A stretch of 64,000 nucleotides of DNA. Origin: Dehalococcoidia bacterium (GTDB lineage: Bacteria; Chloroflexota; Dehalococcoidia; SHYD01). The stretch covers positions 269,638-333,637 of the forward strand of contig CBDDEI010000002.1 of the NCBI GenBank assembly GCA_965226775.1, given 5' to 3'. Within the stretch, counting starts at the first letter, position 1. The number at the start of each line of letters is the position of its first letter. Shown here piece by piece: positions 6,539-27,334 of the stretch. Position numbers and translations under genes: made by a program. Under the pieces are notes generated by a model, which worked only from the letters and a program-made list of their open reading frames with translations, did not search any database and was not told the DNA's origin.

Positions 6539-6595
6539 GCCGGTCGTCTAGCTCCGCTGCCGCATCTCCTCCACTATCGCATCACCCTGGCTACC

Positions 6596-8196
6596 GTGTC
6601 CCGTAACCTCCCAACGTGGTTCTGGGGCTGGTCCGCAGCCGTCCTGGCGGCAGCAGCGCTACCCTACCTGCTCGCGTGGGCGCTGGCGCCTAACGGCTAC
6701 CAGTTTACCGGCATGCTGGCGAACCCCCAGGACGGCTACTCCTATGTGGCCAAGATACGCCTGGCCGCCGAGGGCGGCTCGAGCGGCTGGAGCGGCTGGC
6801 TGCCCTACGCCATCCATGCCTATGGCGATGCCCCCATCTATCCGCAGTACGTGCTTTTGGGGAAGGTGAGCGCCGTCACTGGCGCACCGCCAGTTTTGGT
6901 CTATCATGGCGCAAGGGTTGCCGCCGCGGCGTTCCTGTTAGCCATGACCTTGCTCCTACTCAATCAACTTATCAAAAGCGAAGAGGCGCGCAAGACCGCG
7001 TTCATCTTTGCTGCGGTTGGGGGTGGCCTCACCTGGCTCACCGTGCCCTTTGGCGCGCTGGGATCAGACGTTACCATCCCCGAGTCGACGACCTTCGGCG
7101 GCAGCTTCGCTAACCCCCACTTCCCTATGGCAACCGGCCTGCTGTTCCTGGTGGCGATGGCAGCCCTCCGAGGCCCCCTCAGCAGCCCGCGCCTCGCCTT
7201 CACCGGCCTCCTCGCGAACCTCGCCGCCATCGCTATGCAGCCCTTCCTGTGGGTTACCCAGGTGGCGGTCGGCAGCGTATGGGCGGCGCTCATGATAGGC
7301 AAGGGGCGCACAACCCCCTCAGCCGTGCTGGCGCGCTGGCTATCGGCGGCTCTCCTCCTGGCCCCGTCGGCCCTCCTGCTGCTGCTTCTGGCGCGCGCGC
7401 TCTACGGAGACCCCGTCCTAGCCCAGTGGAGCGCGCAGAATGTGACGCTCTCGCCACCGCCTGCCACTTATCTCATTGGCTATGGCGCGCTGCTGCCTCC
7501 TGCGCTGGCGGGCCTGTGGACGCTGTGGCGCACACCGGACGAGGCGGGGTGCCCCCTCGCGCCGCGCTCTTCGTCATCGCGTGGGCTGTCGCCGGATGCG
7601 CGCTGCTCTACGCGCCCGCGCCCTTCCAGCGCCGCCTCAGTGAGGGCTTGCAGCTTCCCATCGCCGTCTTGGCCGCAGCCGGGATTCACAGTCCGCTGCT
7701 CGCCGCCCTGGGCGAAGCGTGGCGTAGGAGGACACGGCTGCTGGTTACGGCCATCGGGTGCGCGAGCATCTTCTGGCTCACCTACACCAGCGTGGCGGGC
7801 GCGCTCCTGCTGCGGGACGGCTTCTACTTGAGCGACGATGATGCCGCGGCCCTGACCTGGCTGACCGACAACGCTATCCGCGACGACCTGCTGCTGGCCG
7901 CGCCCGTCATCGGCAACGTCGCGCCGGTCTACGGTCCCGCCCGCGTCTACTGGGGCCATCCCTATGAGACGCCCACCGCGGCCTTGCGAGAAGCCGCCGT
8001 ACGCCGCTTCTACCAGCCCGAGACTGCAACCGCCGAGCGCTGCCGCATCCTAACCGAAGGCGATGTTACTCTCATCTACGCGGGCCCAAACGAGGCGCGT
8101 CTAGGCGGCGCAAGGCTGGACGATCAGGCGCTGGGGCTGGCATCGGTCTACGAAAATTCGAGCGTCACCATCTATCAGCGCGCGTCCGCCTGCTAG
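6596..8196 (+). CDS. polytopic membrane protein, putative GT-C-like glycosyltransferase (frameshifted near 7545-7560)
   Basis: ORF 6596..7831 is coherent and membrane-like up to ...LWRTPDEAG, then becomes P/S/R-rich nonsense. Frame-shifted ORF 7249..8196 becomes coherent from ...PRAALFVIAWAVAGCALLYAPAPF onward. The break is a 1-nt indel in GAGGCGGGGTGCCCCCTCGC. Merged length is about 530 aa. Confidence 0.5.
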
Positions 8197-8219
8197 ATAC
8201 GGACACTGGACACCGAGCC

Positions 8220-12664: not shown

Positions 12665-14157
12665 TGGCAATAGTGCAGCGCTGGTGGGTGTTGGGAGTGA
12701 TCTGCGCGGCGGGACTGGCCCTGCGCTGGCCCAGCCCGGACCGTCAGCTGGAGTACGACGAGGTGGTCAGCCTGCTCTTTGCCCGCATGGACCTGGGGAC
12801 GATGGTGCAGGCCACTGCGGCGGACACCATGCCGCCCCTCTACTACGCGCTGCTCCACTTCTGGCAACTGCCGGGCGAGAGCCTTTTCCACGCCCGTCTG
12901 CTCTCCGTGATCCTGGGCGTCCTCACCATCCCCCTGCTCTATCTCCTGGGCAAGCGCCTCCTGGACGAGGGCACAGCCCTGGCGGGCGCGGCGTTGCTGG
13001 CCCTTTCGCCCTTCCACGTCTTCTATAGCCACTACGCGCGCATGTACGCGCTGCTGACCCTGCTCTCCGTCCTGGCCGTGCTGGCGCTCATCGGCTGGCT
13101 ACGCGGGGGCAGCCGTAAGGGATTGGTCATCGCGGTGCTGTCCACTATCGCGGCCCTCTACGTCCACAACCTCGCGGCGCTGCTGGTGCTGACCTTGAAC
13201 CTGCTCTTCCTGCTGACCCGCAACCGTTGGCCGGAGCAGGGCGCGCCACGTCCGCTGCGAGACCTTATGATAGTAGACGTGGTATTGGCACTGGCATGGT
13301 TGCCCTGGCTCTCCGTGCTGCCCGGACAGCTCGACAAGATAGCCGCCGCCTTCTGGATCCAGCATCCTGGAGCGGCAGAGGTCGCGCGCTCCGCCATCGT
13401 GTACCACTTTCACTTACCGTTGCCCGATTTGTGGTTGCCTGTTGCGGCCTTCCTGGCCCTGCTGCTCGTCGCGATTACTGCGGCGGAGGTGCGCCGGGTA
13501 TGGCTTGAGGAGCCGCCGCGCCGGGCCGGCCTCCTTGCGCTCATCACCTTAGCTTTGGCGCCGCCGGGCTTCATGTTCCTCCTGTCCCAGGCGCAACCCG
13601 TCTACGTGGAGCGGGGCATCCTCCTCTCGGCCTTGGCCTACTACCTCCTCCTCGCGCTGGCCCTGCGACGCCTGCCGCTGCGGCCTCTGGCCTGGGGCCT
13701 CACCGTCGTCTTTGGCCTGGCGCTGGGAGCGGCCCACGTCTACCAAGTGAGCTACGAGGCCTTCCCTCGCTCGCCCTTTGCCCAGGCGGCGGCCTACCTG
13801 GGCGGCGTAGTACAGCCCGGTGACCTGGTGCTCCACGATAACAAGCTGAGCTACTTCCCTACCTACTACCTTGCGCCGGAGCTGCCGCAAGCGTTCCTGG
13901 CCGACCCTCCCGGCTCGCCCAACGATACCCTCGCGCCCGGCACACAGCAGGCCCTTGGCCTCTACCCCGTCGCGCTGCCTGATGGCGTCGAGGGACGCTC
14001 CCGGGTGTGGCTGGTGGCCTTCGACCAGGCGCTGCAAGAGGGACGCGCCGCGGGCCAGCCACTGGCAAGCAAAGCCTGGCTGGACGACCGTTACACGAGG
14101 ACAGACCAGGCTCAGGTGGGCGATCTGCGCCTCTATCTCTATACCTTGGAGCACTAA
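12664..14157 (+). CDS. glycosyltransferase family 39 (PMT_2/ArnT-like) protein
   Basis: 497 aa. LEYDEVVSLLFARMDL...MPPLYYALLHFW...LSPFHVFYSHYARMYAL is the canonical PMT_2/GT39 N-terminal signature including the DE motif. The start overlaps the upstream stop (TAATG). Confidence 0.8.
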   Translation: MAIVQRWWVLGVICAAGLALRWPSPDRQLEYDEVVSLLFARMDLGTMVQATAADTMPPLYYALLHFWQLPGESLFHARLLSVILGVLTIPLLYLLGKRLLDEGTALAGAALLALSPFHVFYSHYARMYALLTLLSVLAVLALIGWLRGGSRKGLVIAVLSTIAALYVHNLAALLVLTLNLLFLLTRNRWPEQGAPRPLRDLMIVDVVLALAWLPWLSVLPGQLDKIAAAFWIQHPGAAEVARSAIVYHFHLPLPDLWLPVAAFLALLLVAITAAEVRRVWLEEPPRRAGLLALITLALAPPGFMFLLSQAQPVYVERGILLSALAYYLLLALALRRLPLRPLAWGLTVVFGLALGAAHVYQVSYEAFPRSPFAQAAAYLGGVVQPGDLVLHDNKLSYFPTYYLAPELPQAFLADPPGSPNDTLAPGTQQALGLYPVALPDGVEGRSRVWLVAFDQALQEGRAAGQPLASKAWLDDRYTRTDQAQVGDLRLYLYTLEH

Positions 14158-15732
14158 ATGGAGCCACTAGAGCAGCCACAGCAACATACCGCCACGCTAC
14201 GCGCCAGGGACTACCGTGTCCTAGTGGGCCTGGTCCTCTTCGCGTTCTTTCTCCGCATGCTGGTGGCTTCGCTGCTCCCCTTCCCCTCCCTGGACGACCC
14301 CGCGCTCTACTACACCACCGCGGCGCACTTGGCCGACGGCCGCGGCTTGGTGAGCGACGTCATCTGGAGCCACCTAGTTCCCTTTGACTCAGTGTCTCAC
14401 CCCAGCAACGAGCATTGGATGCCCCTCACCGTGTTTGTTCTGGCGGCCGCGTTCGCCGTGGCCGGGACCAGCTTGTCCATCGCCCAAGCGGTCGGCGCGC
14501 TCTTGGGGGCGCTGGTCGCCTGCCTCGCATGGCTCATCGCGCGCGATGCCCTTGCCCCCACGGATGGCTGGCGCTGGCGCGCGCTCTTTGCCGGCGCGCT
14601 GGTAGCCCTGAATCCGCTGCTGGTCTACCAATCGGTGACGGTGGACAGCGCCGTCTACTTCACCCTGCTGGGCGGAGCGTGCCTCTGGCTGGCTGGCCGC
14701 ACGCCCCAGGGCGCAACGCCGCATCCGCTGGTGGGCGCGCTGGCCGGCCTCTCCTACTTGGCCCGCAGCGAGGGCATTGTGCTGCTGGCGTTTATCGCCG
14801 CCCGTACTTGGAAGGACGCGCCGCCCGCGGAGCGCATCCGGCAACTTTCCGTGCTGATCCTTCCCGCCGCGCTGGTGATGGCGCCGTGGCTCCTTCGCAA
14901 CACGCTGACCTTCGGCGCGCCGCTGCCCGTGCCAACCCTCGCCCTCGCGCTCCTTCCCGACTATCCCACCCTCTTTCACTACGGCCAGCCTAGCTACTGG
15001 GACGGCCTGCCGCCGCTCCCAATTGGCGAGATCGTCATATCTCGCATAGCAGGGCTGATACACAACCTCTTTATCCTGGTAGGCCAGGCCCTCTTCCCCT
15101 GGGCCTTCTTCCTGCCGGCGGGGCTCATCGCCTCTAGCCATCGCTCGCCGCTGGGCACGGCCACTGCTGCCATGGTGGCGCTATTCCTTGCCAGCGCGCT
15201 GCTCTTCCCTGTCCTCACACTCTCGGGCTCGTTCTATCACGCGGTGGGCGCAGTGCTTCCTGGACTCACGGTGGCCGGACTCCTGGGCGCGGAGCGCATC
15301 GGCCGCATCCTGGGAGGCCGCTTCTTCAGCGACCCCGAGTTCCTCTCCATGCTCAGCGTGGTGGCCGCCGCCGCCCTGACCATGGCCCAGCTCGGCCTCT
15401 TTGCCGGCTACGCTGCGGAATTGCACCACTCCTGGCAGCAGGAGTTCGGCGATGCTTCCGCCTGGCTCCAGGAGCGCGATGCCGGCGCGGTGCTTTCGAC
15501 GCAGCCGCACAGCCTCAACTACGCGAGCGGCCTGCCCGCAGTGATGCTCCCCGCCAGCGACTCACCGGCTGTGGCCGAGCAGGTGGCCCGGAGGTACGGC
15601 GCGCGCTACGTGGTGGGCTTTGGACGCTTTGGACGCTACCCCGACGCGCTGGACAGCCCCGAGGGCGCAGCTTTCACCCAGGCCTACCGCAACGGCAACG
15701 TGTGGATCTACGAGCTGCAAGATGCCCCGTAA
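14158..15732 (+). CDS. ArnT/PMT-like GT-C membrane glycosyltransferase (paralogue of 22826..24451)
   Basis: 524 aa. ...PFPSLDDPALYYTTAAHLADGRGLVSDVIWSHLVPFDSVSHPSNEHWMPL... is the GT-C first-loop DD motif. Its start abuts the upstream stop (TAAATG). Confidence 0.65.
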   Translation: MEPLEQPQQHTATLRARDYRVLVGLVLFAFFLRMLVASLLPFPSLDDPALYYTTAAHLADGRGLVSDVIWSHLVPFDSVSHPSNEHWMPLTVFVLAAAFAVAGTSLSIAQAVGALLGALVACLAWLIARDALAPTDGWRWRALFAGALVALNPLLVYQSVTVDSAVYFTLLGGACLWLAGRTPQGATPHPLVGALAGLSYLARSEGIVLLAFIAARTWKDAPPAERIRQLSVLILPAALVMAPWLLRNTLTFGAPLPVPTLALALLPDYPTLFHYGQPSYWDGLPPLPIGEIVISRIAGLIHNLFILVGQALFPWAFFLPAGLIASSHRSPLGTATAAMVALFLASALLFPVLTLSGSFYHAVGAVLPGLTVAGLLGAERIGRILGGRFFSDPEFLSMLSVVAAAALTMAQLGLFAGYAAELHHSWQQEFGDASAWLQERDAGAVLSTQPHSLNYASGLPAVMLPASDSPAVAEQVARRYGARYVVGFGRFGRYPDALDSPEGAAFTQAYRNGNVWIYELQDAP

Positions 15733-17212
15733 CCAGGCCATGCTTGCGCTGCGGCCTCAGGCGCTCCTGGCTGCGGTGCTGCTCCTGGCCTTTGGTTTAC
15801 GGGTGGTTACCCTCGGCCAGCAGAGCCTCTGGTACGACGAAGCCTTCAGCCTGCTCCTGGCGCGCTATGACTTAAGCGAGATCGTGGCGCGCACGTCTCT
15901 GGACACTATGCCGCCCCTCTATTACTGGCTGCTCCACCTCTGGGGCGCGGGTGCGCCGGTGGACTTCTCTCCTCGCTTGCTCTCCGCCATCGCGGGCACG
16001 CTGTCCGTGGCATTGGTCTACGCCGTGGGGCGGCAACTTATGGACTCAGGTGTGGGCCTCTGGGCGGCCCTCTTCACGGCGGTCGCGCCCTTCCAGGTCT
16101 TCTACGGCCAGGAGACCCGCATGTATGCGTTGTTGGGCCTCTGGAACCTCCTGGCTGCCTGGGGCTTCCTCCTAGGCTGGAAGGAGCAGCGACGCCTTGG
16201 CTGGGCGCTCTACGGCTTGGGCGCCGGCCTGGCCTTCTACACCCACGCGCTGGGAGGTCTGCCATCCCTGGCGCTCCTGGCTTGGGGCATGGCGGCTTCC
16301 GTCAACGCCCGCGAGCCTTCCCGGCTGCGCGCGCCCCTCATCGCACTCGTCGTGGCGGGCATCTGCTACCTGCCCTGGCTCACCGTGCTGCTGGGACAGG
16401 CGCGCGCCGTGTTGTCCTCCTTCTGGGCCAGTCCTCCCAGCGTTATCAGTCCCTTAGCGAGCCTTTACGTTTTCTTCCAGGGCCCCTTTGCCAACCCGGC
16501 GTGGATGCCCCTAGCCCTGACCGCCGTGCTTGCGCCCCTTGCCCTAACGGTCTACGCGCTCACCCGCCACCCCGGCCCCGACCCCGCAGACCTGAGCTTC
16601 CTCTGGGCGTGGCTGGCGCTCCCGTTGCTCGCCCTGCTTCTCTTCTCCCTCGTGCGTTCGGTCTACCTGGAACGGGTGGTCATCGGCGCGAGCTTTCCCG
16701 TCTACCTGCTCCTGGGCTGGGCCGCCGCCCGCCTTCAGCCGCGCGCGCTGGGCCTCGCGCTGGCCGCGGCGGTACTCTGCTCCGCCGGCGCGGGGCTGAC
16801 CCTCTGGTTTACCGACGCCGCTTACGGCAAGCCGCCCCTGCGCGCGGCCGCCGCGGCGGTCAACGAGGCGTGGCAGGAGGGCTCGCCGGTCCTGCACACC
16901 AGCGACGGCAGCATGCTCCCCTTCCTCCTCTACGCGCCCGATCTCCCCAACACCCTCCTAGACGGCGACCCCGAACGCGCCGGCCGCACTGCCCGCGCCC
17001 GCAGCACTTACGAAGCCTTGGGTATCGTCCCGCTGTCTCTCGAAGAGGCTGTGGGCGACGCGACTGAGTTCTTCCTGGTCGTCGCGCTGGACCACAGCGT
17101 AGCCTTCCAGCGCGCCCTCGCCGACCGCATCGACCAGCGCTACCGGCGCGTCGCAGAACAGGACGTGGGCGGTATCACCGTGCGACGCTATCAGACCGGA
17201 GCCGGGCCATGA
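15722..17212 (+). CDS. glycosyltransferase family 39 (PMT_2/ArnT-like) protein
   Basis: ...GQQSLWYDEAFSLLLARYDLSEIVARTSLDTMPPLYYWLLHLW...APFQVFYGQETRMYAL. Start chosen at ATG 15722 (an alternative is 15740). The ORF-track start 15620 overlaps the upstream gene. Confidence 0.8.
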   Translation: MPRNQAMLALRPQALLAAVLLLAFGLRVVTLGQQSLWYDEAFSLLLARYDLSEIVARTSLDTMPPLYYWLLHLWGAGAPVDFSPRLLSAIAGTLSVALVYAVGRQLMDSGVGLWAALFTAVAPFQVFYGQETRMYALLGLWNLLAAWGFLLGWKEQRRLGWALYGLGAGLAFYTHALGGLPSLALLAWGMAASVNAREPSRLRAPLIALVVAGICYLPWLTVLLGQARAVLSSFWASPPSVISPLASLYVFFQGPFANPAWMPLALTAVLAPLALTVYALTRHPGPDPADLSFLWAWLALPLLALLLFSLVRSVYLERVVIGASFPVYLLLGWAAARLQPRALGLALAAAVLCSAGAGLTLWFTDAAYGKPPLRAAAAAVNEAWQEGSPVLHTSDGSMLPFLLYAPDLPNTLLDGDPERAGRTARARSTYEALGIVPLSLEEAVGDATEFFLVVALDHSVAFQRALADRIDQRYRRVAEQDVGGITVRRYQTGAGP

Positions 17213-18381
17213 CCCCCACGCCGGCCTTGCTGCAAAACCCGGCCCTCCGCAGCAGCCTCAGGTCGGCGGCGACGGCGTTCCTCATTTCCCGGGGCTTTGT
17301 GCTGGCCGCAGTGCTGGCAGCGCCTTTGCTGCTGGTGCAGGAGGTCTCACCGGACCTGGTCCCGCCGCCCTACCATACACCGGCCTTCTGGGTGGTAGAC
17401 GCCCTAGCCCGTTGGGATGCCTGGCGTTATCTGAGCGTAGCCAGCATCGGCTACCGGGAGGGCTACCTGGGCGCAAACCCCCAGATCTTCCCCCTCTACC
17501 CTGCGCTCATGCGTCTACTGGGGGGCTGGTTTGGCGATGCAGGGCTTGCCTATGCCGGCTTCTTCATTGCCAACGGGGCCTTCTTTGCTGCACTAACGCT
17601 GCTCCATCTCCTGGTGCGGGAGCGCTACGACAAGGCGGTTGCGGATAGAAGCGTCCTCTACCTCGCCGTCTTCCCCACCTCCTTCTTCTTCAGCGCCCTC
17701 TACGCGGAATCGCTCTTCCTGCTGTTGAGCCTCGGCTGCTGCTACGCCTTGGAGCAGCGCCGCTGGGTGCTTTCCGGCGCGCTAGGCTTCTTGGCGGCGC
17801 TGACCCGCGCGCCGGGCGTTTTTCTCGTTATCGTGCTGCTCTGGGAGTTCCTCCGGCAGCCGGGCGGCCTGCGGCAAGCGAAACCGGCCCAGCTGCTCTC
17901 GCTCCTACTGCCGCCCGCCGGGCTATTGCTGTTCATGGGCGTCCTAGCCCAGCAGATAGGCGATCCGTTGGGCTTCGTGCGGGTGCAGACCCAGTGGGGC
18001 CGTGAACTGGAGCTGCCTACGGGCAACCTCACCAGCCTCATAGAGGCAGTCACCAGCGGTGGCGCGCAGTTTCCCACCTTTGGACTGCTCTTTCCTCTGA
18101 CCCTAACCATCCTCTTCATTGCAGTGGGCCTCAAAGCGCTGGGCGGGCTGCCTTCTCTGTACCGGGTGTGGTTCTGGGTCTATTTGGGCGTCATCCTCTC
18201 TGCTCCCGCGGGCGCGGCCTTCCTGAGCGTCACCCGCTTCCTGGCGGTGGCCTTCCCGGCGTTCATCGGCCTGGCCCGCTGGGGAGACCGGCGCTGGTTC
18301 CACCTGGGCTACCTCACCCTTAGCCTCCTCTTCCTCACCTTCAGCACCATCCTCTTCTCACGTTGGTACTGGGTGGCATAA
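17209..18381 (+). CDS. PIG-V/GT76-like mannosyltransferase family membrane protein
   Basis: 390 aa. ...FWVVDALARWDAWRYLSVASIGYREGY... resembles the conserved RWDA..Y..IA..GY region of GPI mannosyltransferase 2-like GT-C proteins. The ATG overlaps the upstream stop (ATGA). Confidence 0.5.
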   Translation: MTPTPALLQNPALRSSLRSAATAFLISRGFVLAAVLAAPLLLVQEVSPDLVPPPYHTPAFWVVDALARWDAWRYLSVASIGYREGYLGANPQIFPLYPALMRLLGGWFGDAGLAYAGFFIANGAFFAALTLLHLLVRERYDKAVADRSVLYLAVFPTSFFFSALYAESLFLLLSLGCCYALEQRRWVLSGALGFLAALTRAPGVFLVIVLLWEFLRQPGGLRQAKPAQLLSLLLPPAGLLLFMGVLAQQIGDPLGFVRVQTQWGRELELPTGNLTSLIEAVTSGGAQFPTFGLLFPLTLTILFIAVGLKALGGLPSLYRVWFWVYLGVILSAPAGAAFLSVTRFLAVAFPAFIGLARWGDRRWFHLGYLTLSLLFLTFSTILFSRWYWVA

Positions 18382-18391
18382 GGACGCTGGA

Positions 18392-20782
18392 ATGAGCCTG
18401 GCTCCCGCGGCGCCCTCGACCGCTTTGCCCTTGCTGCGTCTGGGCTTGGCCCTCACCGCGGCGGTGGCCTTTGCTCTGGACGCCGAGCCCTTCCACCGTT
18501 ACCTGCGGGCGGTAGCCATCACCCCGGAGCTGCTCCAGACGGAAGCGCCTCCCGGCTACCTGCGGGTCACGGCCTACACCCTCCTCGGCTTCGTCCTACT
18601 GCTCATCGCTGCGCAACGGCGTTTGGGAGCGCGTTCTCTCCACGTCGCCTTAGGCATCGGGTTTCTGCTCGTTCTGGTTCCCAACCTCCTAGCATCATTC
18701 AGCGCGCCTCACTACGGCGTGGACAGCGTCTCCTACACCCGCTACGCCACCGGCCTGCTGCTGGAGGGGAAGCACCCCTACGCCGATTTCGAAGCCGCCG
18801 AGGCGCTCCAACGCTACCCCGTCCGGGACACCGCGGTCACGTACACCAACGACGGCAGGCTGATGAACGTATTCAACTACCCGCCGGGGTCTTTCCTGAT
18901 CCTCGCCCCCCTCTACGTTTTGGGCGACATCGACCCGCGCTGGCTCTACGGCCTCGCGTTCTTCTTTATCGCGGCGATGCTGCTCTGGCGCGCGCCTCCC
19001 TCGCTGCGACCGCTGGCGCTGGGCTTTCTCGGCTTCCACCAGTTCTTCGCATTGTGGGCCGTTCCTGGCGGCGTCGCCGAGCCCCTCTGGATGGCCCTGC
19101 TGCTGGTCGCGTGGCTGCTGCGCGATCGCCCAGTGCTGGGCGGCGCAGTCCTTGGGTTGGCGCTGGCGGTGAAGCAATTCGCCTGGTTCTTTTACCCTTA
19201 CTACCTCATCATCGAGTACCGGGAGCGCGGCTTGCGGGCGGCTATTCAGGCAGGGGCCATTGGAGCAGGCGTCTTCGCGCTAGCCAACCTCCCCTTCCTG
19301 GTCACCGACCCCGCCGCGTGGCTGGAAGGCATAACCGCGCCCTTAACGCAGCCGCTGCCGCCCATTGGCATAGGCATCGCCCGCTGGGCCACCCTGGCCT
19401 TCCCGGACGTACCCAAGATGGCGTACACCTTGCTCCTAGGCGGCGGGATTATCGCAGCGCTGGGCGTCTTCTGGCGTTGGGGCGGGCGGTATCCGGCGCT
19501 CACCTTTGTGCTGCCCTGGCTGCCCCTCTGGTTCTCCTGGCGCTGTCTTTCGGCCTACTTCTACCTGATGCCCATCATGGTGCTCTTTGTCTTTTTTGAG
19601 CAGTGGCGCAAGGAGGATACGGCCGTGGCCGCCCAAAGTACGGCTCCCCTGCTCCTGCCGTTGTCGCTGCTCCTCGCCTCCCTGGTAGCGTTCGCACTGC
19701 ACAGCACCTACCAGGCCTACTTCCTGTGGGAGCTGCTGGTGAACCAGGGGATGCCTCTGTCGCAGCTCCAGGACTTGGCGCTCTTGAGCATGCTCCTGAC
19801 CACCCTAGGGCTGAGCCTTATCGTGACCGCAGCGATGGTGCGGGATCGCTCGCCCAGTGCCCTGCGCTTCTCCCTCTTCGGCAGCGGGCTGCTGCTGGCG
19901 CTGGTAACCCTGGCGGGTATTCAGAGTGCGCAGACCTACCAGGTGGACGCTGGACTCTCACCCCACTACGCTGCGGAGCTCCTACTGCGCGGCGAGAACC
20001 CCTACGAGGCATGGAACATGGAAGCCGCCGCGGCTCGTTTCAAGGTGCCGGAAGCGCTGCTGGTAACCGCTCCCTCTAAGGACGCCTTTGGCTATCCCGC
20101 GGGGTCTTTCCTACTCCCCGCGCCCCTTGTTGCCCTGGGCCTCCCGAACCTGCGCCTTCTCTATGGCTTTGCCCAGATAGCCCTGGTGGTGTTCGCCTTG
20201 GCGCGCGCGCCGCAAGCGCTCAAACCCATCACGCTTGCTGTGGCCACAACCATTGCGGGCCTGAGCTTCCTCTTTGCGGGCGAGGGCTACAACGACATCC
20301 TGCTGGCGTGGCTGCTGCTGGGCGCATGGCTCCTGCGCGACCGCCCGCTGCTGGGCAGCCTGGCGCTGGGATTAGGGCTGGCATTCAAGCAGGCGGCCTG
20401 GCCCTTCCTGCCCTTTTATCTCATTGTGTTGCACCGCCGTCACGGCCTCGCGCCCGCCCTCCGGGGAGCTGCCCTCTCTCTCGGACTCTTCCTGCTGCTG
20501 AACGCGCCCTGGGCGCTTACCGCTCCCGATGCGTGGGCCCGCGGACTGCTGGCTCCCGCCTCGGTGGCTACGCTCCCCATCCCGGCGCTGCTAGCCTTGA
20601 CGGGCTTTGGTCTTGCCATCGCCGTCTTCTACCGCTGGCGCAGCCTCTGGGAGCGCGCTGCGCTGGCCCTGCCCTGGGCGCCGCTATGGTTCACTTGGGC
20701 CAGCCAGTTCAGCCTCTTCCACACGCTGCCCCTAGTCTTCCTGACCGCGGCCGTGTCCGACAACCGCGAGGAGGAAGTATGA
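18392..20782 (+). CDS. membrane protein with tandemly duplicated DUF2029/GT87-like GT-C module
   Basis: 796 aa. The two halves are clearly homologous: LLEGKHPY/LLRGENPY; YPPGSFLILAPL/YPAGSFLLPAPL; AWLLRDRPVLGGAVLGLALAVKQFAWFFYPYYLI/AWLLRDRPLLGSLALGLGLAFKQAAWPFLPFYLI. Confidence 0.6.
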   Translation: MSLAPAAPSTALPLLRLGLALTAAVAFALDAEPFHRYLRAVAITPELLQTEAPPGYLRVTAYTLLGFVLLLIAAQRRLGARSLHVALGIGFLLVLVPNLLASFSAPHYGVDSVSYTRYATGLLLEGKHPYADFEAAEALQRYPVRDTAVTYTNDGRLMNVFNYPPGSFLILAPLYVLGDIDPRWLYGLAFFFIAAMLLWRAPPSLRPLALGFLGFHQFFALWAVPGGVAEPLWMALLLVAWLLRDRPVLGGAVLGLALAVKQFAWFFYPYYLIIEYRERGLRAAIQAGAIGAGVFALANLPFLVTDPAAWLEGITAPLTQPLPPIGIGIARWATLAFPDVPKMAYTLLLGGGIIAALGVFWRWGGRYPALTFVLPWLPLWFSWRCLSAYFYLMPIMVLFVFFEQWRKEDTAVAAQSTAPLLLPLSLLLASLVAFALHSTYQAYFLWELLVNQGMPLSQLQDLALLSMLLTTLGLSLIVTAAMVRDRSPSALRFSLFGSGLLLALVTLAGIQSAQTYQVDAGLSPHYAAELLLRGENPYEAWNMEAAAARFKVPEALLVTAPSKDAFGYPAGSFLLPAPLVALGLPNLRLLYGFAQIALVVFALARAPQALKPITLAVATTIAGLSFLFAGEGYNDILLAWLLLGAWLLRDRPLLGSLALGLGLAFKQAAWPFLPFYLIVLHRRHGLAPALRGAALSLGLFLLLNAPWALTAPDAWARGLLAPASVATLPIPALLALTGFGLAIAVFYRWRSLWERAALALPWAPLWFTWASQFSLFHTLPLVFLTAAVSDNREEEV

Positions 20783-22239
20783 CCAGCGCGGGCTTCGCCT
20801 TCCGTGCGCTTCTTGGTAGCGCCGCCCTCTACCTGTTCGCGGCCTCGGCGTTTGCCGGCGCACTCGGCTACCCACTAGATGACGCCTGGATTCATCAGAC
20901 GCTGGCGCGCAATCTGGTGGAGCGCGGCGAGTGGTCTATCAACCCCGGCACGCCCGCGGCCGTCTCCACCGCGCCGCTGTGGACGCTGCTGCTGACCCCG
21001 GCCTATCTGCTCCCCATCCCTCCGTTAGCCTGGACCTACCTTCTGGGAGGACTAGCCCTAGCCTGGGTTGCCTGGGAGACCTTTAAGCTAGCCACCCTCC
21101 TCTTTCCCGATGATGAGGAGTCGCCCGGCATGGCTGCGCTGCTGGTGCCCTGCGAATGGCACCTCATCTGGGCAGGCTTCTCCGGCATGGAAACGCCTCT
21201 CTTTGCCGCGCTCAGCCTTGCGGTGCTGCGGATGGGCCTGCAGCAAACTGCGCTCAACCTCCGGCACTGGGGCGTGCTGCTCACCCTGCTTGTCCTCACC
21301 CGCCCAGAAGGCTTGCTCCTAGGCGCACTCATTCTCGTGTGGCGGTTCTTCCGTCCGAGCGCGCCGGAAGGGTTGGTCGAAAGGCTGCGGCCGGTAATCC
21401 CCCTAGTCGTCGCGCTCCTGGCGCTGGGTGCCCTGAACCTCGCGTTGAGCGGCCAGCCTCTGCCCAGCACTCTTGTTGCGAAGAACGCCGCCTACGGCTT
21501 CGGCTTCGACCTCGCCGACTACGGGCGGTTCATTGCAGACGCTACGTTGGAGCTGTCCAGCGGCCTGCTCTTGCTGCTCATACCAGGCATCCTGTACACC
21601 ATCTGGCGGCGACTCCCCGGCGGCCATAGCGACGGCTGGTTGCCGCTGCTGTGGGTAGTGGGCCTGATGGGCGCGTACGCCGTCTGGCTACCGGCGGTCT
21701 ACCATCATGGCCGCTATCTTATGCCGTTGATGCCCCTGCTCCTCATCTATGGTGTCCAGGGCAGCCGCGCGCTGCTGCAAGCGCGCCCGTATCCGCTGCT
21801 TGCCGGCGTGGCCCCGTGGATCATGGCCGCTCTGGTTGCGATGTCCTGGCTGCGGGGCGCGGATATCTATCGAGAAAACGTGGCGTTCAGCCAAAAGCAG
21901 CAAGTGACCCTCGCCCGCTGGATTAGCCAGAATACGCCAGAGGACGCCCGCATCGCCGGCCACGACATCGGTGCACTGGGCTACTTTAGCCAGCGACCGA
22001 TCATAGATATGGCGGGGCTAGCAACCCAGGAACTCACCAACAGCCCCAAAGACGTCGAGCGCATCCTGGCTGTGCTTCAGGAGCAGGGTGTCACGTATCT
22101 GCTGGTGCAGCCGAGCTGGTTCCCGTCCCTTTACGCGCGCCTCCAAGCCGAGCCTAACGTTGAGGTGGTTCAGGAGGGACCCAAGACCATTCACGGGCCG
22201 TCTTACAGCTTCCAAGTGCTGCATTTTGGGGAGGATTAG
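20779..22239 (+). CDS. polytopic membrane protein, putative GT-C glycosyltransferase
   Basis: Start reassigned to ATG 20779 (GAGGAAG RBS; ATGA overlap with the upstream stop). The ORF-track start 20308 is antisense-overlapping garbage. ...LGYPLDDAWIHQTLARNLVERGEWS... plus multiple TM helices and a C-terminal soluble domain. Confidence 0.5.
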   Translation: MTSAGFAFRALLGSAALYLFAASAFAGALGYPLDDAWIHQTLARNLVERGEWSINPGTPAAVSTAPLWTLLLTPAYLLPIPPLAWTYLLGGLALAWVAWETFKLATLLFPDDEESPGMAALLVPCEWHLIWAGFSGMETPLFAALSLAVLRMGLQQTALNLRHWGVLLTLLVLTRPEGLLLGALILVWRFFRPSAPEGLVERLRPVIPLVVALLALGALNLALSGQPLPSTLVAKNAAYGFGFDLADYGRFIADATLELSSGLLLLLIPGILYTIWRRLPGGHSDGWLPLLWVVGLMGAYAVWLPAVYHHGRYLMPLMPLLLIYGVQGSRALLQARPYPLLAGVAPWIMAALVAMSWLRGADIYRENVAFSQKQQVTLARWISQNTPEDARIAGHDIGALGYFSQRPIIDMAGLATQELTNSPKDVERILAVLQEQGVTYLLVQPSWFPSLYARLQAEPNVEVVQEGPKTIHGPSYSFQVLHFGED

Positions 22240-22269
22240 TCAAACGCTGCAGTAAGTGCGCCGCGTCTC

Positions 22270-22300
22270 TTGACGCAGGTTGGGGAGGTAGCTCTACAAT
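22270..22300 (+). promoter_or_regulatory. candidate sigma70-like promoter for flp pilin gene
   Basis: TTGACG (22270-22275), a 19-nt spacer, then TACAAT (22295-22300). Located about 115 nt upstream of the pilin start. Confidence 0.3.
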
Positions 22301-22415
22301 AATCCATCGAGTTACGAGTATCAGGACCGGATAGCACATCTATACCCCCTGTATGATAAATGGAATTGTCCTTGTGCTTGGCGCTCGAAATCTATTGGAA
22401 GGGAGTAAGAGGGCT

Positions 22416-22565
22416 ATGCATTCCCTACTACGAAGGGAAGAAGGACAAGGTCTAGTTGAGTACGGGTTGATCATCTTCCTGGTTGCAATCGTAGTGATTG
22501 CCATTCTGGTACTGCTCGGCCCGCAGATTGGCGCCATCTTCAGCGGCATTACCGCCTCTATCTAG
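22416..22565 (+). CDS. flp: Flp/Fap family type IVb pilin
   Basis: MHSLLRREEGQGLVEYGLIIFLVAIVVIAILVLLGPQIGAIFSGITASI. It has the G/XXXXEY prepilin-peptidase motif, a hydrophobic helix, and a strong SD GGAAGGGAG upstream. The ORF-track start 22353 was shortened. Confidence 0.75.
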   Translation: MHSLLRREEGQGLVEYGLIIFLVAIVVIAILVLLGPQIGAIFSGITASI

Positions 22566-22663
22566 CCAATGCGTGGTGATTGCCCGGCTAGTACTCCTTG
22601 GCGCACCAACTGGCTCCAAGTCCATTAACATCACCGCATCCATCTAGCCAATTTGATAGGTAT

Positions 22664-22703
22664 TCAGAGGCGTCAGGTTCTACTCGTTAGTCCTGACGCC
22701 TCT
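22664..22703 (+). terminator. hairpin downstream of flp (13-bp perfect stem)
   Basis: CAGAGGCGTCAGG - 14-nt loop - CCTGACGCCTCTG. No strong U tract. Confidence 0.45.
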
Positions 22704-22825
22704 GCTGTACTCACACACTTCTCTCATCGCCGGCATGAGCTCGCTGTGACCAGACACCCCTTCGCAATAACCGACCCTCCTTCACTGCTCCCCGAACCAC
22801 GGATCAGCTCGACCGCCTGCACTCT

Positions 22826-24451
22826 ATGAGCGTCACACCCGCACCCCAACCGCCTCCTAGCGCCAGCGCAGAGGGTCGCTTGTCCCAAGAGCACGCCAGC
22901 GCGCTGCCCCTCAAGTACATCGTTGGGTTAGCCGTAGCAGCCCTGGCGGTGCTCGTCCTGGCCGCCCTCGCTTTCCATGACCCCGGCTACATGGACGCCT
23001 ACTACGCGTACCACGTGGCTGCCAACTTGGCCGCCGGCCGCGGCTTTACCGAGGACTTCATCTGGATCTACCTGACCAACCCGCCTTCCCTCTCGCATCC
23101 CAGCCATCTCTACTGGATGCCGCTAGCAAGCCTGCTAGCCTACCCCGCGCTCCTGCTCTCGGGCGAGCACTTTCGCGCGGCCCAAGCGCCCTTCCTGATC
23201 CTCAGCGCTGCGGCTGTCGTCACCACGGCGCTGCTCGCCCGGCAGCTGCTGCCCGGAACCTTCCGTCCTCTCGCGGCGGCGCTCCTCACCCTCTTTGCGG
23301 GCTACTACTTTGTCTACTGGCTGGCCGTGGATGCCTTTGGCGCGTTCACGCTGGCCGCACTCCTGGCATTTGTCGCGACGGCCGGCCTCCTGGAGGAAGA
23401 CCGGCCACTATCTCGCACGGTCCTGCTGAGCGCGCTCTTGGGCCTTGCAACCGCCGCCGCCCACCTGGCGCGCGCAGACGGCCCGCTGCTGCTCGCCGCC
23501 TGCAGCCTTGTCCTCATCGCATCTCAGCGACGGCGCGCTCCCCAGACCTGGCTCCTTCCCCTAGGCATCGCGAGCGCCGCCTATCTGCTGGTGATGCTCC
23601 CCTGGTTTCTCCGCAACTTGGGCGTGAGCGGCGCACCCCTGCCCAGCGACGGCCTGCAGACCCTCTTCCTCCGCGAGTACAACGATATCTTTTCCTACGG
23701 GCTTGCCCTAGACCTCCAGCACTACCTGGGAGAGGGCTGGGCAGCTATCCTAAGCGGCAAAGCTGTGGCCGCGCTGCGGAACCTGGGCGTCCTCTTTGGG
23801 CTGCAATACTGGCTGGTACCCTTTGCCGCCATGGGCTGGTGGGCGCTACGCGGTCGTCCTGTTATGCGCGCGCCCTTGCTCTACGGCGCGTTGCTCTACG
23901 GCGTCATGACCCTCCTCTTCACCTACCCAAGCAGCCGCGGGGCCATGCTCCACTCCAGCGTTGCGCTGCTGCCTTGGTTGAGCATCGCCGCGGTGCGGGG
24001 CATTGAGGTTGCGGTCTACTGGGCCGCGGCTCGCCGGCCCCACTGGAAGCCCGCCCTCGCTACCCGCAACTTCACCCTTCTGGCTCTCGTGGCCGCCGTG
24101 GCCGCATCGGGCTACGCCTGGTACGACCAGGCCCGCGGCTGGAGCGAGCAGGCCCAGACCTATCAGTCGCTTGCGCCCGCCCTCAACGCCGACGACCCAT
24201 CTGCCGTGCCTATGGTGCTTAATGCTCCCGCCTGGTGGTATGTATCCCGCCGCTCGGCTATGCTAACCCCCAGCAACGGCCCGGACGCCGCGCTGGCCGC
24301 AGCCGCCCGCTTTGGCGCGACCCATCTCATCCTCGAGCCGGCGCGACCCACCGCTTGGGAAGGCTTCGGCAAGGGCAGCGACCCGCGGTTCAGCCTGGTG
24401 TATGCTAGGGACAACTACGAGATCTATCGACTAAGCCCTGTACAAAAATAA
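22826..24451 (+). CDS. ArnT/PMT-like GT-C membrane glycosyltransferase (paralogue of 14158..15732)
   Basis: 541 aa. ...FHDPGYMDAYYAYHVAANLAAGRGFTEDFIWIYLTNPPSLSHPSHLYWMPL... aligns with the corresponding segment of gene 14158..15732. Confidence 0.65.
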   Translation: MSVTPAPQPPPSASAEGRLSQEHASALPLKYIVGLAVAALAVLVLAALAFHDPGYMDAYYAYHVAANLAAGRGFTEDFIWIYLTNPPSLSHPSHLYWMPLASLLAYPALLLSGEHFRAAQAPFLILSAAAVVTTALLARQLLPGTFRPLAAALLTLFAGYYFVYWLAVDAFGAFTLAALLAFVATAGLLEEDRPLSRTVLLSALLGLATAAAHLARADGPLLLAACSLVLIASQRRRAPQTWLLPLGIASAAYLLVMLPWFLRNLGVSGAPLPSDGLQTLFLREYNDIFSYGLALDLQHYLGEGWAAILSGKAVAALRNLGVLFGLQYWLVPFAAMGWWALRGRPVMRAPLLYGALLYGVMTLLFTYPSSRGAMLHSSVALLPWLSIAAVRGIEVAVYWAAARRPHWKPALATRNFTLLALVAAVAASGYAWYDQARGWSEQAQTYQSLAPALNADDPSAVPMVLNAPAWWYVSRRSAMLTPSNGPDAALAAAARFGATHLILEPARPTAWEGFGKGSDPRFSLVYARDNYEIYRLSPVQK

Positions 24452-24474: not shown

Positions 24475-25032
24475 ATGACGAGTTCGCAATTTGTAAACCG
24501 CAGTCATGAGAGCATCCTCAATGACGTACTTGCGCGGTTATTCCGTGAAAGGTACGGACTACCTGCTGTAGCTGAAACACTCCGGCAACGCCAGCGGCCT
24601 GACATAGTGGCACGGCGAGTGGACGACGCGGTCATCGTTGAAGTTGAATTTGAGCCTGCAGATACAGTAGACGCAGATGCGCTCTCCCGGCTTGGAATGG
24701 AGATAGACGGGAAACCCGTACAGGTTGCATTCGCAGTTGCCATTCCTAATGCGCTGAGGACTACTGAACAGCAGCATTTACTAGAGCGTCTTGCTACAGC
24801 CTCTTTCAGATGGCAAGAGTGGCGTTCTGATGGCACTTCCGGACCAAAGGTGAGTGGAAATTCCGCTGATTTGGCTCAAGCGGTACGGGAAGCTGTAGCA
24901 CCTGGTGGAAATCTAGAGCAAGCTGTTGCCCTCCTGGATGAAGGCACGCGCTTCGCGGGGGGCGCGCCTCTATTCCTCACCTGGCACGCTAACCAGAATC
25001 GCCCGAATCTTTGGAACTGCTCCCAGCCTTGA
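24475..25032 (+). CDS. hypothetical protein; possible PD-(D/E)xK-like nuclease module of a split type IIG enzyme
   Basis: 185 aa at the start of a low-GC island. ...RPDIVARRVDDAVIVEVEFEP... is a PD...EVE arrangement. It stops 10 nt before the ATG of the methyltransferase gene. The downstream reading frame is open through this region. Confidence 0.4.
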   Translation: MTSSQFVNRSHESILNDVLARLFRERYGLPAVAETLRQRQRPDIVARRVDDAVIVEVEFEPADTVDADALSRLGMEIDGKPVQVAFAVAIPNALRTTEQQHLLERLATASFRWQEWRSDGTSGPKVSGNSADLAQAVREAVAPGGNLEQAVALLDEGTRFAGGAPLFLTWHANQNRPNLWNCSQP

Positions 25033-25042
25033 AGTGGGCAAT

Positions 25043-27334
25043 ATGGCCTCGTTAATAATGACTAACGCTATGTTGTTTCAAGAGAGGCTTGCAAGCGCAG
25101 ACGCTGATGTTCCCTCAGTTAACAGCGCTCGAGACGGAAACGGGATTTCGCGAACGAAGCTCATGGACGCATGGAGCATCATTCTCGAAAAGGATTACTG
25201 GCCCGTCTTTCACATGGCCCAAGCTATTGCTGAGAGCTTGTCAGACATTGAGGGGCCTGCCGTGTTATCAATGTGCGCTCTGACTTCTGAACGTTTACTG
25301 AGCACTGGCGCGGTGGGAAGGCACGACCTTGCTGGACGAATATTCAATAGGCTGATATCCGACCGTAAACTGCTCGCAGCATTCTATACAACAATCCCAG
25401 CCGCTACATTACTGGCTGGGCTCGCACTCTCACCAAAACGGTGGTCAACAATTAACTGGAGTGACGCCGAAGCAATAAATGACTTGCGGGTCGTTGACCC
25501 GGCCTGTGGCACAGGCACCTTGCTGATGGCAGCCTATCGTCAAATTGTCGATAACGTTCGTGCAGCTTCATATGGGAAGCTTGACGAATTGAACCTTCAC
25601 AAATCTTTGATTGAGAATGTCCTGCATGGCGCTGATGTTGTCCAAGCAGCAATCCATCTGACTGCTTCAACGCTGGCAGCTATGTCGCCTTCCGTCCGCT
25701 TCAGCCAAATAAATCTCCACACGCTAAAAATTGGGATTGACCCAGACCTGCAAAGCATCAACCTGGGATCTTTGGATTGGCTTGAAGCAGGGGAGATACA
25801 ATCCTTTTTCTCTGCCACAGGTGAGCAGGTTGCAGCAGCCAAGGGAATTACAGGAGCTCTCGTTGAAAGACCACGAGCAAACGTAGTGATTAGTAATCCA
25901 CCATATACCCGCCGTGGTAGCGATGGGAGTGCTTCCGAAGAAATTTCTAGAGTTTTTGCACTCCCTATAGGTGACCCAGATTCCCAGGATCGTATAGCAA
26001 AGCGCACTGCTCAACTGATTCATGGCACAGGAGCTAGTCAAATAGCTGGGCACGCCTCCTCTTTTACCGTCTTGGCAGATAGGCTTGTTGTTCCAGGCGG
26101 CCGGATAGCCCTGGTACTCCCTGTGACCGCTATTGCAGGAGAATCTTGGTCTAGCATTAGAAAACTTATCTCCTCTCGTTACGAAGTGGAATTTGTGGTT
26201 TCATCACACGATGCGTCCTCTCCCGGTATGTCCTTCGATACAGGAATCGCTGAGATTCTGCTTGTAGCCCGTCGACATAATCAAGCGGAGATACCAACTA
26301 ATCGCGGCTTATTCGTCAACATATCACGTGCTCCTACGCAGGTCACTGAAGCACTCGCATTATTAAATGCCCTTGAAGCGTCCGCTCAGGGATCGGTTCA
26401 TCGGTCCGATGGGCCACCAGTTGGTGGTACACCGTTGATCGTTGGCGGCGAGCAATGGGGCGAAATAGTCAATGGGCCACTGGGTTCTGACTCCTGGACA
26501 GCAGCACGTTGGAGGAGAGCTTTAGTAGAGCAGTTTGCTTCAGCGTTGGAACGTGGAGAACTATGGTCAGCTGAAGGCACTCGGCTCTTAGAACGTATTC
26601 CTGTTGCACCTCTTCATGAAGTTGCCGTTATTGGGCCGCAAGATCGTCAGATTCGCGGCTCTCTTGGAGCTTTTGACGCTTATCCAGGTTGGGACTCACA
26701 GGCCCAGTTCCCCGCCATTTGGCGACAACAAGAATCAATTCATAGAACATTACAAACTGAGCCTAACGCACGATTGGTTCCGCAAACAGGTCGAGCTTAT
26801 GCCAAACTTTGGGAACAGGCAGGCACACTTCACATTACTCGTGACGTTAGGTATAACTCACAACGGGTCGCTACCGTCCGAACGGCAAGGCGCGTTCTAG
26901 GCGTTCGTGCCTGGCACTCATTAAATGTCCGTGGTGAACCTGAAGCAACAAAGGCTCATCGTGAGATGGCTCTGGCGCTATGGTGTAACTCTACGCTGGG
27001 ACTCCTACTCCACAGCAATCACGCTAACCGAGCTCAGGCTGGGCGTGGAACCGGGAGCAAGGGAATGCTTGAGTCCTTACAGACTTTAGACGTTCGCATA
27101 CTCGCCCCTTGGCAGCTTGATGCGGCGGAAAGTATTTGGCGAGACATGGAAAACCGCGAATTTCAATCGTTCCATAGCTGCGCGATAGATCCCGCTCGTA
27201 TCGAACTAGACAATCGCGTACTCCATGATTTATTAGGTTTTGGGCTAGAGAGTGAGACGACAGTCCAACGTTTGCGTCTCGCACTTGCAGAGGAGCCCTC
27301 AATCCATGGTTCTAAAGTGCCCCGTTTACCATGA
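25043..27334 (+). CDS. N6-adenine DNA methyltransferase (Eco57I/type IIG-like) with C-terminal target-recognition region
   Basis: SAM motif I VVDPACGTGTLLMAAY. Catalytic motif IV VISNPPYT. About 430 aa of non-MTase C-terminal sequence. Low GC. No separate HsdS/HsdR nearby. Confidence 0.7.
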   Translation: MASLIMTNAMLFQERLASADADVPSVNSARDGNGISRTKLMDAWSIILEKDYWPVFHMAQAIAESLSDIEGPAVLSMCALTSERLLSTGAVGRHDLAGRIFNRLISDRKLLAAFYTTIPAATLLAGLALSPKRWSTINWSDAEAINDLRVVDPACGTGTLLMAAYRQIVDNVRAASYGKLDELNLHKSLIENVLHGADVVQAAIHLTASTLAAMSPSVRFSQINLHTLKIGIDPDLQSINLGSLDWLEAGEIQSFFSATGEQVAAAKGITGALVERPRANVVISNPPYTRRGSDGSASEEISRVFALPIGDPDSQDRIAKRTAQLIHGTGASQIAGHASSFTVLADRLVVPGGRIALVLPVTAIAGESWSSIRKLISSRYEVEFVVSSHDASSPGMSFDTGIAEILLVARRHNQAEIPTNRGLFVNISRAPTQVTEALALLNALEASAQGSVHRSDGPPVGGTPLIVGGEQWGEIVNGPLGSDSWTAARWRRALVEQFASALERGELWSAEGTRLLERIPVAPLHEVAVIGPQDRQIRGSLGAFDAYPGWDSQAQFPAIWRQQESIHRTLQTEPNARLVPQTGRAYAKLWEQAGTLHITRDVRYNSQRVATVRTARRVLGVRAWHSLNVRGEPEATKAHREMALALWCNSTLGLLLHSNHANRAQAGRGTGSKGMLESLQTLDVRILAPWQLDAAESIWRDMENREFQSFHSCAIDPARIELDNRVLHDLLGFGLESETTVQRLRLALAEEPSIHGSKVPRLP

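Follow-up and report, generated by a model that had tools for sequence, protein, structure and literature searches.

Can a single polypeptide carry two glycosyltransferases of the GT-C type, and what would a protein built in this way do? This question is raised by an open reading frame (ORF) in a 64,000-nucleotide stretch of a Dehalococcoidia genome (phylum Chloroflexota; contig CBDDEI010000002.1, positions 269,638 to 333,637 of the forward strand), which is called the window in the following. The ORF, which encodes 796 amino acids (Table 1), is present exactly as given in the original prediction, according to which an internal tandem duplication had created two complete catalytic modules related to GT87. 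The reading favoured here, which we regard as moderately probable, is that of a single-chain pseudo-heterodimer of two GT87-like GT-C modules (GT-C_A fold), in which a canonical site in the N-terminal (N) module and a remodelled site in the C-terminal (C) module face outwards and serve the same surface glycan.

The internal tandem repeat of the protein is real. When residues 1-420 were compared to residues 421-796 by BLASTP with composition-based statistics, both halves shared 38% identical amino acids (E 1e-37, 349 columns); when the cut was moved to residue 410, residues 4-410 and 411-796 aligned end to end (36% identity, 409 columns, E 1e-46). Aligned with each other, the halves reached a Smith-Waterman score of 523, in comparison to 53.5 +/- 8.5 for full shuffles (z = 55) and 66 +/- 15 for shuffles within blocks of 20 residues (z = 31), the latter of which retain the pattern of hydrophobic segments of the C half. 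An artefact of low complexity or hydrophobicity is excluded by these z-scores, and the self-similarity is significant beyond hydrophobic low complexity. All three motif pairs quoted in support of the duplication were found in the translated sequence. The limits given for the repeat (residues ~100-400 and ~500-796) do lie within it but are too short, as its true extent (4-410 versus 411-796) takes in three N-terminal helices of each module.

The two-module form is also conserved. When 5.8 billion protein clusters were searched with a word index, only four clusters of two-module orthologues were detected, P0001 (97% identity), P0002 (56%), P0004 (48%) and P0005 (39%), and a second word-indexed search with a two-module profile yielded no further ones. 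The orthologues comprise 796-846 amino acids, and in all four clusters the internal repeat was significant in split-half BLAST (E 1e-31 to 1e-53). The nearest genome is the complete 2.22-Mb chromosome of a Dehalococcoidia metagenome-assembled genome (OZ244809.1), which encodes a 796-amino-acid protein with 97% identity.

In a neighbour-joining tree of the separated modules, the N modules of all four lineages formed one clade (100% bootstrap), and the C modules of three lineages formed another (100% bootstrap; 54% if P0005 was added). Identities were 42-62% among N modules, 32-50% among C modules and 27-35% between N and C modules, and the C modules evolved faster than the N modules in every lineage pair. 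Since N modules cluster with N modules and C modules with C modules, the duplication is older than the divergence of the four lineages; judged from the tree, duplication and fusion are old and conserved, not recent. The claim that this locus is strong evidence for an operon evolving by duplication was therefore overstated, because the duplication is older than lineages whose identity has since dropped to 39%. It holds only in deep time: on the DNA level the halves share a single stretch of 80 nt with 76% identity over the AWLLRDRP...KQ motif, and other paralogue pairs of the locus are equally old (34-38% identity). These are the PMT_2 genes at 12664-14157 and 15722-17212 (34.5% over 472 amino acids, E 4e-53) and the genes at 14158-15732 and 22826-24451 (37.6% over 93 amino acids, E 6e-11).

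In comparison to the 97% identical orthologue, the ratio of non-synonymous to synonymous substitution rates (dN/dS) was 0.126 for the N module and 0.084 for the C module. A value of 0.93, as under relaxed constraint, was obtained for residues 411-470, but this segment holds 7 substitutions only. By these ratios, both modules are under purifying selection, and the C module appears strongly constrained yet functionally diverged. How the pair arose is less clear. The family comprises two length classes of the first extracytoplasmic loop (EL1), and both modules belong to the short class (spacing 29-38). The idea that a short EL1 is a derived trait found only in the N and C modules was considered and rejected, as 16 proteins without the two-module layout share it, at least two of which are gene fragments. 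An in-situ duplication and a fusion of two adjacent short-EL1 paralogues both seem compatible with the sequences; they are not separable because stand-alone short-EL1 proteins exist and the deep nodes of the module tree are not resolved (bootstrap 8-37%).

To which family do the modules belong? The N module matched the Pfam family GT87 (PF09594) with 33.6 bits (cut-off 25; residues 161-373) and, more weakly, ALG3. Among the orthologues, the C module of P0004 reached 27.4 bits with GT87 (above the cut-off of 25), and that of P0002 21.6 bits with GT87 (below 25) and 36.1 bits with ALG3 (above 23.6); the ALG3 model matches both N and C modules of orthologues. Neither PimE nor any other GT-C protein was reached by phmmer or by two profile searches of all PDB sequences, for which reason the family is named GT87-like within the GT-C clan and is not regarded as orthologous to PimE.

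A full-length AlphaFold2 model was built from an alignment of 40 sequences, which included only six two-module sequences; its predicted local distance difference test score (pLDDT) was 80.7 and its predicted template modelling score (pTM) 0.79. In Foldseek searches, its only credible PDB matches, all with probability 1.00, were glycosylphosphatidylinositol (GPI) mannosyltransferase I (9WNO), ALG3 (9S6R), PimE (9DM5/9DM7) and PIGU, with template modelling (TM) scores, normalized by target, of 0.64, 0.50, 0.58-0.60 and 0.58, respectively. PimE is the polyprenyl-phosphate-mannose-dependent alpha-1,2-mannosyltransferase of mycobacteria, and GPI mannosyltransferase I and ALG3 likewise use a polyprenyl(dolichyl)-phosphate-mannose donor. 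A model of the C module alone (pLDDT 86.4, pTM 0.87) matched PIGU first, followed by ALG3 (probability 1.00, TM 0.49), PimE (probability 0.54, TM 0.31) and EmbB. Both halves are accordingly GT-C_A-type modules of the PimE/ALG3/PIG-M class, the C half, with its weaker structural matches, through its homology to the N half (E 1e-46). The structural prediction that had been proposed thus recovered the GT-C folds; as to whether they pack as a pseudo-dimer, the pTM of the whole chain suggests a confidently placed module pair, and it is the one measure that speaks to the packing.

From an alignment of 80 single-module representatives with the modules, 36 columns conserved to at least 85% were obtained. 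Of these positions 30-31 are retained in the N modules and 23-26 in the C modules (30 versus 23 in the window protein). The motifs YxxD, GxNPY, YPxGSF, AW...R, KQxxW, NxP and PxxW occur in both modules. The aspartate of YxxD is conserved in 99% of the family members; in the full model D111 forms the N-terminal tip of a predicted juxtamembrane helix (residues 111-124) in the first loop on the outside, and in the model of the C module D519 lies in the corresponding loop at the tip of helix 519-532. In PimE, D58 occupies a comparable place at the tip of JM1, the first juxtamembrane helix, which makes both residues candidate equivalents on the basis of predicted helices. By spacing and predicted topology, K261 and K666 might correspond to K195 of PimE, and W383-R384 to W319/H321/H322.

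The claim of two complete catalytic modules holds only in part. The C module keeps the candidate D519 as well as K666 and Q667, but counterparts of R384 and Y389 and about 27 residues are missing, and alone it reaches no Pfam threshold. In the C modules of the four lineages, the position of R384 is occupied by A, P, P and H, and that of Y389 by L, I, I and Y. The C modules furthermore lack two EL1 positions (T/G), and the missing residues of the window lineage include the PxGxG loop. With seven more conserved positions lost than in the N module and with its faster evolution, the C module is, as far as the sequences tell, functionally asymmetric to its partner, although both are constrained.

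The predicted topology is consistent with two sites on the same side of the membrane. Each YxxD loop is entered from a helix that comes after a loop rich in lysine and arginine (QRRLGARS and MVRDRSPSALR), and charged residues mark the linker between the modules (EQWRKED). PimE possesses 12 transmembrane helices with both termini in the cytoplasm, and its catalytic D58 marks the tip of JM1 (PMC12041525); compared to it, both modules carry an additional N-terminal helical hairpin. Each module most probably has an even number of passes and cytoplasmic ends, and it follows from this number that both YxxD loops (with D111 and D519) would face the outside of the membrane.

Of the characterized enzymes, PimE is comparable in its GT-C_A fold class (with its Pfam family GT87 matched above the cut-off by the N module) and, by predicted position, probably also in an invariant aspartate that opens the first juxtamembrane helix in the first outside loop (like D58), in a conserved lysine about 150 residues further on (like K195) and in a motif of tryptophan and basic residues near the C-terminal end (like W319/H322). 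It differs in being a single module of 12 helices, whereas here two modules with extra N-terminal hairpins are fused, and in its origin from mycobacteria, which are actinobacteria, in comparison to a Dehalococcoidia-like member of the Chloroflexota; the sequence relationship is remote. GPI mannosyltransferase I (PIG-M/Gpi14, GT50) is the best structural match of the full model, and ALG3 (GT58) matches both the full model and the C module; both are single-module proteins of the eukaryotic endoplasmic reticulum with 15-17% identity.

On this basis the following mechanism is proposed. An enzyme of about 400 residues from the PimE/ALG3/PIG-M structural class would have undergone an ancient tandem duplication and fusion. 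The N module would act as the canonical enzyme, with a polyprenyl-phosphate-sugar as the donor of what is probably a hexose, for instance mannose, with D111 as the base and with K261 and R384 holding the phosphate. In the C module, in which the aspartate and the lysine are kept, the donor and acceptor loops would be remodelled, and it would most likely add to the same growing glycan by a second transfer that differs from the first; the product of one site may thereby be passed directly to the other. The bifunctional or processive action suggested in the original prediction is plausible, with a non-catalytic C module as a serious rival. The protein would work together with the other membrane proteins encoded in the same run of genes (YfhO-like, three PMT_2, PIG-V-like and others) on an extracytoplasmic glycan whose carrier would be a lipid or a surface protein; the Flp pilin, encoded two genes downstream, is a possible candidate. 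For polyprenyl-phosphate-mannose as the donor the indications are circumstantial: the top structural matches are all mannosyltransferases, and relatives adjoin PIG-V-like and small GT2 genes.

Several observations weigh against this mechanism and the pseudo-heterodimer as a whole. No gene for a polyprenyl-phosphate-sugar synthase was found in the 64-kb window. The equivalences to K195 and H322 of PimE come from spacing and predicted topology, not from superposition, and the packing of the modules is inferred from the pTM of 0.79 only. The fold matches of the C module alone are weak (E 0.04-0.8; TM by query length 0.31-0.49), and the first of them, PIGU, is a non-catalytic subunit with a GT-C fold. 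The C module lacks the family-invariant arginine and tyrosine and the PxGxG loop; the lysine of its KQ motif is replaced by serine in the P0005/P0012 lineage, and in P0024 the C module is largely deleted and its core is gone. In the window protein the C module alone gave no Pfam match at E<=0.1, so that the proposed domain annotation returned GT87 for the N module and no family for the C module. Standard annotation consequently flags one module per protein, and none of these two-module proteins bears a name in current annotation.

The alternative that survives best is that a catalytic N module is joined to a non-catalytic C module, a pseudo-enzyme serving as a scaffold, as an acceptor- or lipid-binding partner or as a regulator of the N module; it falls short of being probable but has to be taken seriously. 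The losses at R384, Y389, the PxGxG loop and the EL1 positions with the resulting difference in conserved positions, the faster evolution of the C modules in every lineage pair, the missing Pfam match, PIGU as the top structural match, the serine in P0005 and P0012 and the gutted module of P0024 all speak for it. A non-catalytic GT87-like partner also has a precedent: a heterodimer of Pmt with ML2687c, which is GT87-like and catalytically dead, has been predicted (bioRxiv 10.64898/2026.07.15.738315). Proposed parallels are Pmt2 in Pmt1-Pmt2, the dead ML2687c with the mycobacterial Pmt, and PIGU in the GPI transamidase. However, dead paralogues usually lose the catalytic acid first, yet the aspartate is kept here: D519 in its YxxD context, GxNPY, YPxGSF, KQxxW and NxP are invariant or nearly so in C modules down to 39% identity, and with a dN/dS of 0.084 the C module is constrained at least as strongly as the N module.

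A bolder version of the two-site reading is that the enzymes of this subfamily are obligate dimers which were repeatedly locked into one chain. In the present protein, approximately 24-28 helices would then place two different sites on one extracytoplasmic cavity, where two successive sugars would be added to a Chloroflexota surface glycan and the intermediate would be kept; as acceptor, an O-glycan of the Flp pilin of the same run is conceivable. This version we consider rather unlikely. The pseudo-heterodimer favoured here has a precedent in non-covalent dimers of GT-C paralogues, which are well known, as in Pmt1-Pmt2, EmbA-EmbB and obligate PMT dimers (PMC7341804, PMC12705809, PMC7759382). 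These resemble the window protein in the pairing of two homologous GT-C modules into a unit whose partners diverged asymmetrically; they differ in being separate chains of the families GT39 and GT53 with large soluble domains, whereas here one GT87-like chain is present, whose interface is deduced from the pTM only.

If both sites performed the same or alternating transfers, the protein could also be a processive polymerase that forms a homopolymer or a polymer of disaccharide repeats, which seems quite improbable. Two sites per chain are a hallmark of several dual-domain polymerases of the GT-A/GT-B type, and BY-kinase-like ATPases are associated with the control of polysaccharide chain length; a gene for a ParA/BY-kinase-like ATPase (5912-6538) heads the run. 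The sequence is, however, silent on processivity, the modules diverged asymmetrically, and the roughly nine other membrane-protein genes, mostly GT-C-like, fit a stepwise assembly by many enzymes better. An artefact, be it two adjacent paralogous genes merged by a sequencing or assembly error or mere low complexity of transmembrane segments, has practically no likelihood left: the two frame changes of the neighbouring YfhO-like gene relative to its 97% orthologue indicate that indels or pseudogenization occur in the window sequence, but the z-scores of 31-55 hold against shuffles that keep composition or local hydrophobicity, mis-assembly or a missed stop is excluded by the intact form, which recurs on no fewer than ten independent contigs, among them chromosomes of 2.2-2.35 Mb, and the continuous two-module ORF in four lineages (97, 56, 48 and 39% identity) refutes this explanation.

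How unusual is the two-module layout? An exhaustive HMMER search of 1.84 billion representatives with a single-module profile identified 1,906 family members (E<=1e-3), and almost all of the best 150 of these are single modules of 450-510 amino acids, in line with the view that such a layout is unusual. Multi-module forms among these 150 are P0002 and P0012 (same clade as the window protein), P0129, P0030, P0039 and P0024. P0129 (1,322 amino acids) consists of two modules, a soluble region and TPR repeats, while in P0030 and P0039 a family module is fused to a different, DUF2029-like membrane module. A further two-module protein is P0011 (870 amino acids). The two modules of P0011 and likewise those of P0129 are each other's sisters in the tree (bootstrap 100% and 97%, respectively), which points to independent duplications. 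Two-module forms are thus rare, a handful among the best 150 of the 1,906, and have arisen independently at least three times, and the recurrence of homo- and hetero-fusions argues that module pairing is functionally favoured. In one other locus (L014:4166-7644), two adjacent GT87-like genes (554 and 547 amino acids) are only distantly related to each other (BLASTP E 0.003) and unfused; this pair was considered as the counterpart of the P0030-type hetero-fusion and was ruled out, as the similarity is not significant.

Fusions of two GT-C modules are not without precedent: a translational GT39-GT87 fusion is known from Paenibacillus (UniProt V9WAU2; bioRxiv 10.64898/2026.07.15.738315), while literature searches directed at tandem or fused GT-C proteins were without yield. 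This protein likewise carries two GT-C modules per chain, one of them GT87-like, so that fusion or pairing recurs; it differs in that its modules belong to two families and its GT87-like partner is devoid of catalytic residues, whereas the modules of the window protein stem from one ancestor and both hold the candidate aspartate. A GT87-GT87 homo-fusion with both aspartates kept is a variation on an established theme and not a new principle.

The gene lies in a run of genes on the same strand from about 5912 to 24451. In order of transcription, the run comprises a ParA/BY-kinase-like ATPase, a 411-amino-acid protein without Pfam match, a YfhO-like protein, two PMT_2 proteins and a 524-amino-acid protein without Pfam match, followed by a third PMT_2 protein, the PIG-V-like protein, the double GT87-like protein, a 486-amino-acid membrane protein, the 49-amino-acid Flp pilin and a 541-amino-acid membrane protein; nine or so of these genes encode membrane proteins, mostly GT-C-like. 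From the YfhO-like gene onwards, the 97% relative and the 48% lineage share the gene order, and the 39% lineage (L004) keeps a core triad of PMT_2 (49%), double GT87 and a 491-amino-acid protein (47%). A flippase gene was not found in the window. Single-module relatives elsewhere lie beside a PIG-V-like gene and a small GT2 gene, and in the locus L012 a PIG-V-like gene and a single-module relative are paired in the same manner as here.

The double gene ends in a stop codon that overlaps the start of the following gene (GTATGACC, with ATGA at 20779-20782), and the two are probably translationally coupled. The downstream protein of 486 amino acids is probably another uncharacterised enzyme of the GT-C type. 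Its orthologue directly follows the double gene in the 97% relative (L001) and in the 39% lineage (491 amino acids, 47% identity); in the locus of the 48% orthologue its counterpart follows after a gap of 166 bp. In the YfhO-like gene, the reading frame switches near 9417-9430 and 9921-9957, and the gene is either a pseudogene or affected by indel errors in the window sequence.

The Flp pilin gene is conserved in L001, and in L008 a second, unannotated 49-amino-acid gene follows the Flp gene. It is speculative that this pilin is the acceptor of the glycan of the operon, as the link is one of genomic adjacency only. In Pseudomonas aeruginosa, the GT-C enzyme TfpW glycosylates the type IV pilin (bioRxiv 10.1101/2020.04.19.049825). 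TfpW is comparable in that a GT-C enzyme is encoded beside pilin genes, with a Flp pilin in the present run and with the GT87-like pair of L014 located within a type IV pilus cluster (two N_methyl pilins, prepilin peptidase, PilM and PilO). In contrast, TfpW is a single module, and here genomic adjacency is all that links enzyme and pilin.

Table 1. Features of the two-module protein and of its gene neighbourhood, with positions in the window.
Feature	Position	Strand	Remarks
Two-module GT-C membrane protein	18392..20782	+	complete gene; ATG start, 796 aa
N module, aa 1-410	18392..19621	+	canonical copy; Pfam GT87 match; 30/36 family-conserved positions
C module, aa 411-796	19622..20779	+	divergent copy; 23/36 family-conserved positions; dN/dS 0.084
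Inter-module linker, ~aa 404-417	19601..19642	+	short, charged, EQWRKEDTAVAAQSTA; probably cytoplasmic
Y108-G-V-D111, YxxD motif of N module	18713..18724	+	D111: candidate catalytic base
K261-Q262-x-x-W265, KQxxW of N module	19172..19186	+	K261: candidate phosphate-binding Lys
P323-P-I-G326-I-G328, PxGxG extracytoplasmic loop of N module	19358..19375	+	~27 residues deleted in C module near aa 722-729
W383-R384...Y389 (family motif AWRSLxxYF), N module	19538..19558	+	intact
Y516-Q-V-D519, YxxD motif of C module	19937..19948	+	invariant in all four lineages
K666-Q667-x-x-W670, KQxxW of C module	20387..20401	+	retained
W769-A770...L775, C-module counterpart of AWRSLxxYF	20696..20716	+	Arg and Tyr, invariant in the family, are lost
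ParA/MinD/BcsQ-like P-loop ATPase, 208 aa	5912-6538	+	resembles BY-kinase/chain-length-regulator ATPases of polysaccharide loci
YfhO-like gene	~8220-10510	+	broken relative to the 763-aa, 97% orthologue in L001; tblastn frame 1 -> 2 -> 1
PMT_2-family GT-C protein, 496 aa	15722..17212	+	49%-identity orthologue directly upstream of the double gene in L004
PIG-V-like (Mannosyl_trans2) membrane protein, 390 aa	17209..18381	+	upstream neighbour
Polytopic membrane protein, 486 aa	20779..22239	+	downstream partner; 'YPLDDAWIH' motif after first helix, C-terminal soluble region, no Pfam family
Flp/Fap-type pilin gene, 49 aa	22416..22565	+	MHSLLRREEGQGLVEYGLII...; G/xxxxEY processing motif; Pfam Flp_Fap E 2.4e-5, below gathering score

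The run stands out by its composition, with a G+C content of 0.65-0.68 in comparison to 0.51-0.64 elsewhere in the window and a strongly negative AT skew (down to -0.29). This could reflect an old genomic island or the composition of membrane proteins rich in alanine, leucine and glycine; since the run is conserved in a lineage with only 48% identity, any transfer would have been ancient. A gene for tRNA-Gly(CCC) (5714-5789) is located immediately upstream. On the groundwater contig of the 39% lineage, phage-like genes (L004:401-3330; a Mor-like regulator and a portal of the SPP1 type) occur about 7-9 kb upstream of the triad. Downstream of the run, between the genes of the 541-amino-acid membrane protein and of an amidase, an MmeI-like N6-adenine DNA methylase of 802 amino acids is encoded (24926-27334, + strand, GC 0.55), a candidate type IIL restriction-modification enzyme. 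It is missing at this position in the 97% relative L001 and therefore looks like a strain-specific insertion.

Glycosyltransferases of the GT-C type make lipoarabinomannan, arabinogalactan, N- and O-glycans and GPI, and several of them need a paralogous partner. The significance of the present protein is moderate, in that a known theme is extended. A GT87-like fusion which was kept over a long time and re-invented is genetic evidence that pairing matters functionally in the GT87-like family, too, and the 796-amino-acid protein would be a convenient single-chain target for cryo-electron microscopy of a GT-C pair. In this uncultured, Dehalococcoidia-like bacterium, the run of membrane-protein genes points to an uncharacterised surface glycan or glycoprotein that is missed by current annotation. 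If the protein is indeed an obligate dimer locked into one chain with two sites, it would be the first natural GT-C enzyme with two active sites and would provide a handle on an uncharacterised envelope glycan of the Dehalococcoidia.

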